DNA of 64,000 nt from a virus. Position 1 is the first letter of the stretch, and every line of letters begins with the position of its first letter. The stretch lies in the UHGV virus genome UHGV-0179803; one strand, 5' to 3'. A model generated the notes under the pieces. The model searched no databases. It saw nothing but the letters and a program-made list of their open reading frames with translations, and had not been told where the DNA came from. The position numbers were made by a program, and so were the translations under genes. Positions 3,347 through 5,632 of this stretch are shown piece by piece.

Positions 3347-3559
3347 TTAATCTAAAATGTCTACAATTTTGAAGTACTCTGGGCATTCGATTACATTCAG
3401 GCAGATGTAACGGCTATCACCATCGTCATCAATCGTATAGAAAGCTAACTCACCGTCAACAGCTGGATGGTGGACGACGTAACCATCGTAGATTCCACCT
3501 TTAGTGAACCCCCAGTAATCACCGAGGCATTTCACTGCAAAGCAATCACCGTTTGTCAT
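3347..3559 (-). CDS. hypothetical protein
   Basis: 70-aa ORF; its ATG overlaps stop of upstream peptide gene (ATGA). Confidence 0.4.
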   Translation of the reverse strand: MTNGDCFAVKCLGDYWGFTKGGIYDGYVVHHPAVDGELAFYTIDDDGDSRYICLNVIECPEYFKIVDILD

Positions 3560-3681
3560 TTCTTCAACTCCTCACGAATCCGGTCACAAACCACTTTCAG
3601 CAGATACGACACCCCAGCAAGTATCCCGCCAAGTACAAGGGATACACCGAAGATCATCAATAGGACATAGATATCTACCAT
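3556..3681 (-). CDS. small single-pass membrane peptide (41 aa)
   Basis: ATG 3681..3679, MVDIYVLLMIFGVSLVLGGILAGVSYLLKVVCDRIREELKK, stop overlaps next start; below 60-aa ORF-track cutoff. Confidence 0.35.
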   Translation of the reverse strand: MVDIYVLLMIFGVSLVLGGILAGVSYLLKVVCDRIREELKK

Positions 3682-3708
3682 GGAAACGTCCACAAGCCAC
3701 CCCCCCCC

Positions 3709-3966
3709 CTATCGAATACCTTTCAGGATATCTTCAAGTTTATAGCCTTCGTCAATTGCATGGATAACTTCATCAGCTGTGTAGTAGTATTCTTTACACA
3801 AGCGGCAGGCTACAAACAGTTCACCACGAAGTTCCAGACGGCTGATATCAAACTCACTGAAACCCTGTTTACGAAGTTCTATCTTACACCATTCTACGGC
3901 AACCTTGCAAACAATAAACAGGATTAAGATTGCCAGAAGAATGGCGGTCAAAGTACTGACTACCAC
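3709..3966 (-). CDS. membrane protein (N-terminal TM helix)
   Basis: 85-aa ORF, GTG start, hydrophobic segment TLTAILLAILILFIVC. Confidence 0.4.
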   Translation of the reverse strand: MVVSTLTAILLAILILFIVCKVAVEWCKIELRKQGFSEFDISRLELRGELFVACRLCKEYYYTADEVIHAIDEGYKLEDILKGIR

Positions 3967-3975
3967 AGAGTCCCC

Positions 3976-4059
3976 TTAGATTAGAATGATAAGTGCGATG
4001 ACTGCTGCCGCTGTAATAGTTATTGTTCCTAAAAACAACTTCAGCATTTCTTTGTTCAT
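3976..4059 (-). CDS. small hydrophobic peptide (27 aa)
   Basis: MNKEMLKLFLGTITITAAAVIALIILI; ATG at 4059..4057; sits between two annotated ORFs. Confidence 0.3.
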   Translation of the reverse strand: MNKEMLKLFLGTITITAAAVIALIILI

Positions 4060-4364
4060 GATATAATCTCCAAAATTTCATAACGGTTAGGTTTGAATAT
4101 GAAGGCTTCTTCTTTTTGGTATTTGCTTTTTATCTTCTTGCCCCCTTTTTCTTTACGGCAGAAATAACAAATGATAACGTTATCTCTTACCATGTGGAAC
4201 AGGATATCTTCTTCTGTCAACCCACAGGTAGAAAGGTCCTCGTAGGAGAGTGCTTTAGCTACAGATTCTTTGGTTGGGGTTTCACCAACAACTTCGTCAC
4301 CTTCGTGAACCCCGTACTCTGCCAAAGCATCTCCCACACCAATCAATCTAACTTTAACCAGCAT
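4056..4364 (-). CDS. hypothetical protein
   Basis: 102-aa ORF, acidic N-terminus, Cys pair near C-terminus. Confidence 0.4.
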   Translation of the reverse strand: MLVKVRLIGVGDALAEYGVHEGDEVVGETPTKESVAKALSYEDLSTCGLTEEDILFHMVRDNVIICYFCRKEKGGKKIKSKYQKEEAFIFKPNRYEILEIIS

Positions 4365-4378
4365 GGGAGAGTCTCCTG

Positions 4379-4651
4379 CTATTCAACGATTTCGTAGCAA
4401 TCACTGCAAACAATCATCGGGTCTGCTTCGAAGCCAGGGATATTTTCAAGAACGACCGCTTGGTTAAGAGTCAGCATAACCAGGAGAATACCAACATCTT
4501 CTTCTGCAACACCTAAGCTAAGCAGTTCTTCTTTATTCGGGTAGTGTGCATCAAGCACAGCACCTTCTTTGATCATACCAGACGCTTCAACCATTCCTTT
4601 CATGTCACTAGGCATCATGCAGTCTTCAACTTTAGTCAGGCGAATTTTCAT
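4379..4651 (-). CDS. small acidic protein, paralog family (C-terminal YEIVE)
   Basis: 90 aa, starts MKIRL, ends CYEIVE; related to 5120..5392, 4651..4944 and 10737..10970. Confidence 0.45.
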   Translation of the reverse strand: MKIRLTKVEDCMMPSDMKGMVEASGMIKEGAVLDAHYPNKEELLSLGVAEEDVGILLVMLTLNQAVVLENIPGFEADPMIVCSDCYEIVE

Positions 4652-4944
4652 TATTCGTCCTCCTCTTCTTCAACAACATCCCAGAAATCACCAGGGATAG
4701 CCAGACCTTTATCTTCATCACCGTTTGGGAAAATGAAAACAACCCCTTCGAGGATCATCATCAGAGTGACCTGCTGTAATGCATCTTCACCAGGATCAGG
4801 ATCTCCGTGAGAAGTGATCTCTTTCAACACATCTGCCGGACTTGGGACAAATGCATCATGAATTTCACCATCTTTGATACCGAAGATTTTTGCTGTTTCT
4901 TCGTCTACACCTTTAAGCACTACTTTAAAATCTGGTTGACGCAT
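4651..4944 (-). CDS. small acidic protein, paralog family member
   Basis: 97 aa ending DVVEEEEDE; 1-nt start/stop overlap with neighbour. Confidence 0.45.
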   Translation of the reverse strand: MRQPDFKVVLKGVDEETAKIFGIKDGEIHDAFVPSPADVLKEITSHGDPDPGEDALQQVTLMMILEGVVFIFPNGDEDKGLAIPGDFWDVVEEEEDE

Positions 4945-5011
4945 TGTGAGTACCTTTTGTAAAAGGGCACATCCGCTGTGCCGATGAGTTAGGGAGGTAA
5001 CTGCAAGTTTA

Positions 5012-5116
5012 TCAGAGAAACTCTTTCAAAACTTTAGCTTGGGTGATCATAAAGACACCGTAAGCAAGAACTACAGGTGCTGTTACGACAGTTAAGAGAT
5101 AAGCTACTGCCAACAT
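5012..5116 (-). CDS. small hydrophobic peptide (34 aa)
   Basis: RBS GAGGAG then ATG 5116; MLAVAYLLTVVTAPVVLAYGVFMITQAKVLKEFL. Confidence 0.3.
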   Translation of the reverse strand: MLAVAYLLTVVTAPVVLAYGVFMITQAKVLKEFL

Positions 5117-5119
5117 GCT

Positions 5120-5392
5120 TTACTCCTCAACTACCTCGTAGTTTTCAGGTAAAACAATCAGGTTTTCACCACTACCCGGGGCATCAAAAGTAGCCATACC
5201 TTCCGGCAGGTGCAGTTCAACCAAAGTGAGCAGAGCTTCACGTTCAGCTTCGCCCATACCTTCGAAAGTTTCGTCACCTAGGGCATCGCGAGCTACATCT
5301 TCCGGTGTAGGAATTTTAGCTTCTACGATCATACCTTCAGTCAGGCCGTGGATTGGATCAGCGATTTCAGTGTTCAGTAATTTAATTTTCAT
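5120..5392 (-). CDS. small acidic protein, paralog family (C-terminal YEVVEE)
   Basis: 90 aa, starts MKIKLL, ends ENYEVVEE; RBS AGAGGA upstream. Confidence 0.45.
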   Translation of the reverse strand: MKIKLLNTEIADPIHGLTEGMIVEAKIPTPEDVARDALGDETFEGMGEAEREALLTLVELHLPEGMATFDAPGSGENLIVLPENYEVVEE

Positions 5393-5417
5393 TAGAAGGT
5401 CCTCTTTTTGGGTAGAA

Positions 5418-5495
5418 TTAATAGCCGTAGCCTAAGAAGTTAACAACAGCTATCAGGAAAATCATAACTAACAGACAAGCTATCTCTAAACGCAT
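5418..5495 (-). CDS. small hydrophobic peptide (25 aa)
   Basis: MRLEIACLLVMIFLIAVVNFLGYGY; short intergenic ORF, weak RBS. Confidence 0.25.
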   Translation of the reverse strand: MRLEIACLLVMIFLIAVVNFLGYGY

Positions 5496-5518
5496 TACAT
5501 GTTCTCTTTAGTTGGTAG

Positions 5519-5632
5519 TTATTTCTCTTGTTTGTAGTGTTCACGGAGGAGCTGGATTACAAAGTCCAGCCCTCCGATGATACCACAGACAAGGAAAGTA
5601 TAGATGAGAAACATTAAAATCATGTCGTACAT
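5519..5632 (-). CDS. small hydrophobic peptide (37 aa)
   Basis: RBS AAGGTGG then ATG 5632; MYDMILMFLIYTFLVCGIIGGLDFVIQLLREHYKQEK. Confidence 0.35.
   Translation of the reverse strand: MYDMILMFLIYTFLVCGIIGGLDFVIQLLREHYKQEK

Follow-up and report, generated by a model that had tools for sequence, protein, structure and literature searches.

Five very short open reading frames for predicted single-helix membrane peptides in the small-gene region of an rV5-like phage

The 64,000-nt stretch of the virus genome UHGV-0179803 analysed here (referred to as the window) carries, among the small genes between positions 3,347 and 5,632, five minus-strand open reading frames (ORFs) for hydrophobic peptides of 25 to 45 amino acids (aa), named genes A to E (Table 1). 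An original prediction, made from the DNA letters without database searches, had listed these five ORFs, and all of them are present where it placed them. Judged by its sequence, the window is a new lineage of rV5-like (Vequintavirinae) myophage, the genes in this part lying on the minus strand. Megablast of the region against 50,697 GenBank phage records gave no near-identical match. Vequintavirus sequences were reached by blastn and tblastn at ~66-76% nucleotide identity to the region, with ~55% protein identity for the 90-aa gene at 5120..5392, and the window is syntenic with Escherichia phage VB-EcoM-WM (PQ014731, locus L001). In the first 16 kb of the window, the convincing ORFs are small and nearly all on the minus strand. 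For the rV5 genome, a region of "88 mainly small ORFs" with sigma-70-type promoters throughout and 15 predicted transmembrane (TM) proteins has been described (PMC3606486).

Table 1. Features of the region by position in the window; KD19 is the maximum 19-residue Kyte-Doolittle mean
Feature	Coordinates	Strand	Description	KD19
Gene A	3556..3693	-	45 aa from GTG 3693; 41 aa (3556..3681) from internal ATG 3681	2.57
85-aa protein gene	3709..3966	-	Between B and A; predicted N-terminal TM helix; phrog_13956, E=3.6e-9	2.96
Gene B	3976..4059	-	27 aa; polar MNKEMLK head, predicted TM helix reaching the C-terminus	2.64
Gene C	5012..5116	-	34 aa; predicted TM helix from the N-terminus, central Pro, tail QAKVLKEFL	2.09
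90-aa protein gene	5120..5392	-	Acidic, SH3-like; D upstream, C downstream	
Gene D	5418..5495	-	25 aa; N-terminal Arg, predicted TM helix, C-terminal aromatic GYGY	2.72
Gene E	5519..5632	-	37 aa; predicted TM helix at ~residues 4-25, basic tail QLLREHYKQEK	2.43
Promoter-like site	5631..5659	-	Sigma-70-type, TTGACA-17-TAGTAT, 10/12 matches	

Each of the five peptides has a single hydrophobic stretch, in agreement with the one TM helix per peptide that had been predicted. The KD19 maxima span 2.09-2.72 against a classical TM threshold of 1.6, and the stretch expected of generic small single-pass membrane proteins (KD19 >1.6) is thus found in all five. The ribosome-binding-site-like sequences that had been noticed could be read as Shine-Dalgarno-like motifs upstream of every gene: GGGGGT 5 nt before GTG 3693 for A (GAGG/GGAGG in relatives), GGAG 8 nt before B, GAGGAG 6 nt before C, AAGAG 8 nt before D (GGGAG in most relatives) and AAGGTGG 6 nt before E. 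Both start/stop overlaps that had been reported take the form ATGA, one joining the stop of 4056..4364 to the ATG of B and the other joining the stop of A to the start of the 70-aa gene 3347..3559. Two further junctions are short, with B ending 9 nt before the 85-aa membrane-protein gene and C starting 3 nt after the stop of 5120..5392. As a control for chance, 2000 dinucleotide-preserving shuffles were made for each gap, and ORFs of at least 25 aa with a 17-residue Kyte-Doolittle mean of at least 2.0 were counted. At least one such ORF appeared with a frequency of 0.057 in the gap of A, 0/2000 in the gap of B and 0.031 in the gap of C, and two or more were found in 0/2000 shuffles of the gap shared by D and E. 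Given these frequencies of 0-5.7% per gap, chance does not account for the ORFs.

The close relatives comprise 11 distinct genomes with 86-90% nucleotide identity (loci L002-L007, L013 and L015-L021), taken from IMG/VR and from metagenome and Logan/ENA assemblies; together with the window they form a set of 12 distinct genomes. The ratio of nonsynonymous to synonymous polymorphism per site (pN/pS) was calculated by the Nei-Gojobori method on an alignment of six distinct genomes, the proposed frame being compared with the two other frames. In this comparison, eight larger neighbouring genes have pN/pS values of 0.12-0.29 in frame, gene C has 0.09 (versus 1.34 and 3.78 in the other frames), gene D 0.15 (versus 1.21 and 1.16) and gene A 0.32 (versus 0.91 and 1.01). 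The nucleotide diversity of C is 0.358 at codon position 3 versus 0.015 at position 2. Purifying selection in the gene's own frame is clear for A, C and D and modest for E, and for B it is seen within alleles and in the rV5-like set only. ORF integrity among relatives, which had been named as a check on the prediction, mostly holds: A and C are intact in 12/12 distinct genomes, and B, D and E are sometimes lost. The disruption beside intact flanking genes that had been named as a sign against such genes was encountered locally, as a frameshift in E and the loss of the start codon of D in L013, and as the absence of B in L018 and L021. These losses with intact flanks indicate that the genes are dispensable, though not spurious. 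The five are accessory genes: A and C occur throughout the sequences compared, and each of B, D and E has in places been lost or replaced. We have little doubt that A, C and D are real genes.

Gene A encodes an acidic N-terminal tail, a predicted TM helix at ~residues 8-32 with GGxxxG, and a basic amphipathic C-terminal tail. Its start is more likely GTG 3693 than ATG 3681, since most relatives have an ATG with a good Shine-Dalgarno sequence at the 45-aa position (L005, like the window, has GTG), and 45 aa is also the length of most gene calls, which fall into six protein clusters with 78-100% identity. No relative outside the lineage was found in a collection of 5.8 billion proteins. A 46-aa ORF at the same position in rV5-like phages was considered as a homologue and rejected, as the profile-profile comparison gave 7% probability, and it is a positional analogue only; the rV5-like counterparts of A and of D are annotated in GenBank as hypothetical proteins. 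Between the stop of 3709..3966 and the start of A, the gene strand of the window reads ten consecutive G (3700..3709), a run that covers the ribosome-binding site of A, where relatives have GAGG, GGAGG or five G. This run could be a slippage-prone tract altering the translation of A, or else an assembly artefact. On the other side, directly downstream of the 70-aa gene, most close relatives have a 111-aa membrane-protein gene with a zinc ribbon and a TM2 domain (PF05154), found at 6014..6349 in L003 and also in L005, L015, L017, L020 and L021, and absent from L018 and from the window (between 3347 and 3328). By its sequence, this is another variable membrane-protein gene of the same stretch.

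The proteins of gene C form a cluster of 29 members, in which the 15 variants listed all have 34 aa and differ by conservative changes, a uniformity subject to ascertainment bias, as only intact ORFs get called as proteins; the same reservation applies to gene E. The exact sequence of C is present on 56 contigs, and no relative outside the lineage was found among 1.84 billion representative proteins. A hairpin after C (4966..4982, followed by CTTTT) was rejected as a terminator, having a z score of -0.66 against shuffles and failing a terminator scan. Upstream of C lies the gene for the 90-aa SH3-like protein, which probably shares an operon with E, D and C. It belongs to a tandem set of four paralogues of ~90-100 aa, all acidic and on the minus strand (5120..5392, 4651..4944, 4379..4651 and 4056..4364), with a common motif MK(I/V)(K/R)L...G..(E/D)G...YE(V/I)(V/L)E; rV5-like phages have five copies. 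In a model by AlphaFold2 (AF2), the 90-aa protein folds into an SH3-like barrel that has a helical insert (predicted local distance difference test, pLDDT, 89.9). In L007, one of the paralogues is split by a frameshift.

Gene D belongs to a catalogued family. In hmmscan, residues 3-25 align to profile positions 11-33/33 of phrog_15151 (E=5.8e-6, 27.2 bits; PHROGs has no curated cut-off), and counterparts of 31-33 aa that end in NVLGYGY lie at the same position in 7/7 rV5-like loci. As in those loci (L001 3797..3898; L008-L012 and L014), D is found directly upstream of the ~90-aa phrog_11868 gene. The members of phrog_15151, hypothetical proteins of 31-33 aa such as XCZ60234.1 of VB-EcoM-WM, share with D the core EIAC...IAVVxNxLGYGY and this placement. 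They differ from it in that D, with 25 aa, is without their basic N-terminal extension (M..IKKLVPN), and in that D is preceded in the window lineage by E and a promoter-like site, whereas the phrog_15151 member is preceded by a gene for an HPF/YfiA-like protein. When the 25-aa sequence was used in tblastn against phages no match was obtained, even though D-like ORFs exist there, which shows that such searches are insensitive for tiny peptides.

Gene E, which is probably a real gene, is intact in 9/11 distinct genomes covering it. Its distinct changes are 6 synonymous and 3 nonsynonymous in frame, versus 2/4 and 0/9 in the other frames (binomial p=0.003 for a synonymous-site fraction of 0.195, in a test that ignores transition bias and phylogeny). 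The cluster to which it belongs has 21 members, and the 15 variants listed are all of 37 aa with conservative changes; the exact sequence is present on 181 contigs. With the 46-aa form starting at TTG as query, no relative outside the lineage was found in the collection of 5.8 billion proteins. The relatives also link E to D. In L015, a Logan contig, the two are joined into an in-frame fusion of 70 aa (P0008) composed of E, an 8-residue linker and D, through a change of the stop codon of E (TAA to TAC) together with one of the ATG of D (to ATA). In L017, the ATG of D is likewise ATA, a new TTG start lies directly after the stop of E, and GYGY reads GGGY. In L013, D has ATA with no alternative start and E is truncated by a 1-nt deletion, with C and the 90-aa gene intact. 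That E and D are kept, joined or lost together fits a dispensable functional unit, a proposal that we hold with about even confidence. AF2 folds the fusion as two helices, residues 2-35 and 42-69 (pLDDT 75, single sequence), and by their charge distribution E and D could pair as antiparallel helices of a hairpin whose loop is basic and cytoplasmic, both topology and pairing being predicted.

Upstream of E, the two hexamers of the promoter-like site 5659..5631 and their 17-nt spacing are invariant in every relative and 6-7 spacer positions differ, which is the pattern expected of a working promoter. Transcripts from this site would begin at ~5623-5625 and could yield a leaderless E of 34 aa from ATG 5623, and those from the stronger upstream promoters at 6079..6051 and 6250..6222 would carry the 37-aa E with its AAGGTG(G) Shine-Dalgarno sequence. 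A promoter scan gave 11 sites in 3.5 kb, versus 5.9 +/- 2.5 in shuffles. Within 200 nt there are three further strong sigma-70-type matches on the minus strand (6222..6250, 6141..6169 and 6051..6079), among the upstream sites being a perfect TTGACA-17-TATAAT inside ORF 6080..6484 and, shortly before the ATG (6019) of an 86-aa gene, an extended -10 site with 11/12 matches. At 5684..5737 on the minus strand there is a Lys/Gly-rich ORF of 17 aa (MACGKKGGKGKGGKGKK) with a GGAG Shine-Dalgarno sequence, in which the substitutions of relatives are all at codon position 3; it is deleted in L004 and L015 and was not found in L017 and L018. At this position, rV5-like phages have a homologue of the ribosome hibernation-promoting factor HPF/YfiA (L001 3908..4225 and equivalents in L008-L014; TIGR00741, 45.9 bits with a cut-off of 40.9), whose C-terminal tail, KCGGKKGKGKGKVK, the 17-aa ORF resembles. 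The ORF may be a remnant of that tail, the nucleotide similarity being too low in complexity to prove descent. The lineage of the window is without the HPF-like gene (~5660..5758) and has the Lys/Gly-rich mini-ORF, the promoter-like site and gene E instead. The 89-aa neighbour is named "sigma 54 modulation factor" in GenBank, a label that seems misplaced.

Gene B, probably a real gene, occurs as two divergent alleles, MNKEMLKLFLGT... and MKENLDLVLAFV..., which have KExLxLxL in common. It is precisely absent in L018/L019 and L021 with its two flanking genes intact, these then overlapping or directly adjoining each other. A 27-aa positional counterpart is full-length in 118/118 GenBank Vequintavirus records, and its pN/pS in the rV5-like set is 0.47, versus 0.96 and 1.07 in the other frames. 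The original prediction had described the gaps as otherwise empty, which does not hold for B, as a 65-aa ORF in another frame (3884..4081) also crosses its gap; this ORF was rejected as the true occupant, as it shows no purifying selection (pN/pS values of 1.6 and 0.88) and is not kept in other relatives. Nucleotide diversity peaks at 3931..4050, with 0.29-0.35 versus ~0.05-0.15 elsewhere in the region. The peak spans gene B and the first ~12 codons of the 85-aa gene, those of its predicted TM helix; as a whole, the 85-aa gene has a pN/pS of 0.29. To judge from the aligned sequences, B and the start of the 85-aa gene appear to be exchanged together as a cassette.

Several observations weigh against reading all five ORFs as genes for functional membrane peptides. 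The pN/pS of B across alleles is 0.67, versus 0.50 and 0.88 in the other frames, a comparison we deem uninformative, and within the window-type allele its value of 0.31 is similar to the 0.35 of one other frame; B is also missing from two relatives, and its translation could matter more than its sequence. The -10 hexamer of 5659..5631 overlaps the ATG of E, the nucleotide diversity of the E region is so low (0.018) that the selection test rests on 9-10 changes, and E is restricted to this lineage and frameshifted in L013. The start codon of D is lost in three relatives, one of which (L017) also has the altered GYGY. Gene C encodes the least hydrophobic of the five peptides, with its central proline, and on the Hessa scale a simple sum for it is +1.2, marginal for insertion. 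On the functional side, family searches gave no homology to any protein of known function, the model of the 90-aa protein is a generic fold with no functional match, and the neighbourhood yields no functional clue. Early expression is probable, the grounds being the host-type promoter consensus and analogy.

In a rival account, a part of the ORFs, chiefly E and B, could be by-products of regulatory or spacer sequence and not functional proteins. The E region would then supply a promoter and a 5' leader to the genes downstream (D, the 90-aa gene and C), as suggested by an ATG within the -10 hexamer of a promoter-like site that is conserved, by the few changes in the region and by the frameshift in L013. 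B would serve as a short relay ORF, its translation and not its peptide linking the 102-aa gene to the 85-aa gene, in line with the lack of clear frame-specific selection across its alleles and with flanking genes that overlap or abut where it is missing. For E, this account has to face the share of synonymous changes in its own frame (6/9, versus 2/6 and 0/9), the uniform 37 aa of the 15 listed variants, and an in-frame fusion paired with the loss of the start of D itself, which is hard to explain if E is untranslated. For B, three sequence types all keep an ORF of 26-27 aa with the same polar head and hydrophobic body, and the full-length counterparts in 118/118 Vequintavirus records, their pN/pS of 0.47 against ~1 and the 0/2000 shuffles all speak for a protein. 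We regard the account by regulatory or spacer sequence as unlikely.

Other hydrophobic mini-ORFs accompany the five. A scan of the whole window identified ten hydrophobic ORFs of at least 20 aa outside larger ORFs, 8/10 of them on the minus strand; all ten lie in the leftmost 27 kb and none in the plus-strand block from ~37 kb onward. Outside larger ORFs there are, for instance, minus-strand ORFs of 38 aa at 1580..1696 (MRVSDITDTAISYCLFSLAIISAILCVAGAVTMICILL) and of 42 aa at 9747..9875 (MKRLIMGQAMLVEMLTGVCLFFVILAGAIILYHKLKEDDEDD). Relatives have a 33-aa TM ORF, MKKFIKELIEGVCWFAFGAVLGLLFVEAMRFIA (L003 324..425), which is split in L007 and L013, and rV5-like loci have one of 31 aa (L010 1592..1687).

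The five genes had been described as unannotated, which is correct with respect to an ORF track with a 60-aa cut-off and incorrect with respect to NCBI nr, where A, C and E are coding sequences (CDSs). By exact look-up, the 41-aa form of A is DAM57173.1 ("Lipopolysaccharide assembly protein A domain"), C is DAM57178.1 ("vacuolar ATP synthase subunit S1") and E is DAM57181.1 ("50S ribosomal subunit"), all three being CDSs of a "MAG TPA Caudoviricetes sp." record. B and D are absent from that protein collection by exact look-up, presumably since they are under 30 aa and thus too short for gene callers. The names given to A, C and E find no support in Pfam, PHROGs or NCBIfam, in which A, B, C and E have nothing above threshold; the LapA domain (PF06305) in particular was rejected for A, with 14.5 bits against a cut-off of 28 and E=0.035. 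Comparison with known bacterial small membrane proteins in NCBIfam and Pfam gave sub-threshold noise only.

Taking these results together, we favour, as reasonably probable, the reading that the five ORFs are genuine genes for peptides of 25-45 residues, each with a single helix in the inner membrane, and that they are accessory; as their mode of action, helix-helix binding is the most likely one but tentative. The genes lie in two tightly packed and translationally coupled runs, one leading from the promoter at 5659 through E, D and the 90-aa SH3-like protein to C, and the other from the 102-aa paralogue through B, the 85-aa membrane protein and A to the 70-aa protein. Following the positive-inside rule, E, A and C are predicted to be N-out/C-in, and D and B N-in/C-out. 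Soon after infection, the peptides would bind phage or host inner-membrane proteins through helix-helix contact, and this binding may alter an envelope function, for instance by keeping out the DNA of competing phages or through modulation of a membrane protein of the host. A helix-binding role is suggested by the host-type promoters, the distance of more than 15 kb to the endolysin, the dispensability of the genes, the fast evolution of B and of the TM helix of the 85-aa protein, and the small-xxx-small motifs. Such a role, envelope-modifying or of exclusion type, remains tentative, and roles in lysis or as depolarising toxins are less likely than helix binding.

The original prediction is thus supported in part, as to very likely small genes for single-helix peptides. 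Of the roles that it offered, which were the targeting of host membrane proteins, superinfection exclusion and lysis timing, none was matched by homology in family searches, and lysis timing is the least likely, given the sigma-70-type promoter upstream and an endolysin more than 15 kb away. In such a scenario, E and D would act as a split two-TM holin or antiholin pair, with the others as lysis regulators. Holins are small, poorly conserved membrane proteins, and the fusion of E and D is a two-helix protein of 70 aa. Class II holins have an N-in/C-in topology, the opposite of the predicted hairpin of E and D, which is N-out/C-out with a cytoplasmic loop. Nor does D have the charged tail at its C-terminus that is expected of a class II holin or pinholin, ending as it does in the uncharged GYGY. 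The genes are surrounded by other small genes downstream of sigma-70-type promoters, and the endolysin region (~21-26 kb of the window) is over 15 kb distant. Only L015 has E and D in one polypeptide, the window encoding them as two genes, and L013 has lost both without an apparent replacement. None of the five peptides matches a holin family in Pfam, PHROGs or NCBIfam. In rV5 itself no clear holin is known, a 78-aa protein with two TM domains (gp129), encoded separately from the lysin, having been proposed tentatively (PMC3606486). On balance, a lysis function appears most improbable.

A further possibility is that some of the peptides, B especially, resemble type I toxins of the Ibs, ShoB, TisB and Hok class and depolarise the inner membrane for host shut-down or exclusion. 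In size and composition B looks like such toxins as generally known, being 26-27 aa long with a short polar head followed by a hydrophobic body without interruption, and it is dispensable and fast-evolving. However, no type I toxin family (Hok, Ldr, Ibs, ShoB, TisB) is matched by any of the five in NCBIfam or Pfam at E values up to 1, B is translationally coupled to constitutively arranged neighbours, and there is no sign of a dedicated antisense RNA locus, though none was specifically searched for. Early depolarisation would also harm the replication of the phage itself, and we consider a toxin role improbable.

For the favoured helix-binding reading, the closest known parallels are small bacterial regulators and a phage exclusion protein. 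Enterobacterial peptides of the MgrB, AcrZ, MgtS, KdpF and CydX class have 25-50 aa, one TM helix and short charged tails, and presumably act through helix-helix binding. The five peptides are like MgrB/AcrZ-type regulators in size, in their single helix, in short charged tails and in small-xxx-small/GxxxG motifs (GGILAG in A, GIIGG in E), and unlike them in that there is no sequence relationship and that they are phage-encoded, five within 2.1 kb. The T4 Imm protein is a 9.3 kDa inner-membrane protein that stops genome translocation by binding the tape measure protein of the incoming phage (bioRxiv 10.64898/2026.03.06.709160). As a small membrane protein of a contractile-tailed coliphage, it offers by analogy a plausible model of action. 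It differs in having 83-94 aa and several helices, versus the single helices of 25-45 aa considered here, and no similarity to it was detected, with no Imm-like match for any of the five in Pfam or PHROGs at E values up to 1. A bolder picture, which we offer as decidedly speculative, is that of a 2.1-kb island of interchangeable TM "plugs" or decoys directed against the DNA-translocation channels of incoming phages or against membrane-anchored defence effectors of the host, with E and D in the midst of fusion or fission and with B and the helix of the 85-aa protein as a hypervariable arms-race cassette.

In kind, the locus is ordinary: its peptides add to the many small membrane proteins of phages and do not amount to a new kind of system. 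Small phage genes are plentiful and for the most part uncharacterised; reports of them exceed 2 million (PMC11323111), and that paper cites a catalogue of such families drawn up from metagenomes by Fremin, Bhatt and Kyrpides (2022). Like such catalogued families, the five genes are short and lineage-restricted, and A, C and E are already in public collections; unlike them, B and D fall below the usual limit of gene callers, and the variant series of E-D and of B are specific to this locus. Genes of fewer than 30 codons are routinely missed by gene callers, and both B (27 aa) and D (25 aa) are below that limit. The locus thus provides five comparatively well-supported examples of mini-genes and, chiefly, a better annotation of the rV5-like lineage. 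Its natural variants, that is, the fusion of E and D, the genome without functional E and D, the genomes without B and the two alleles of B, can serve as experimental handles, and should one of the peptides prove to prevent superinfection or to neutralise a membrane protein of the host, a minimal and easily synthesised tool would be at hand.

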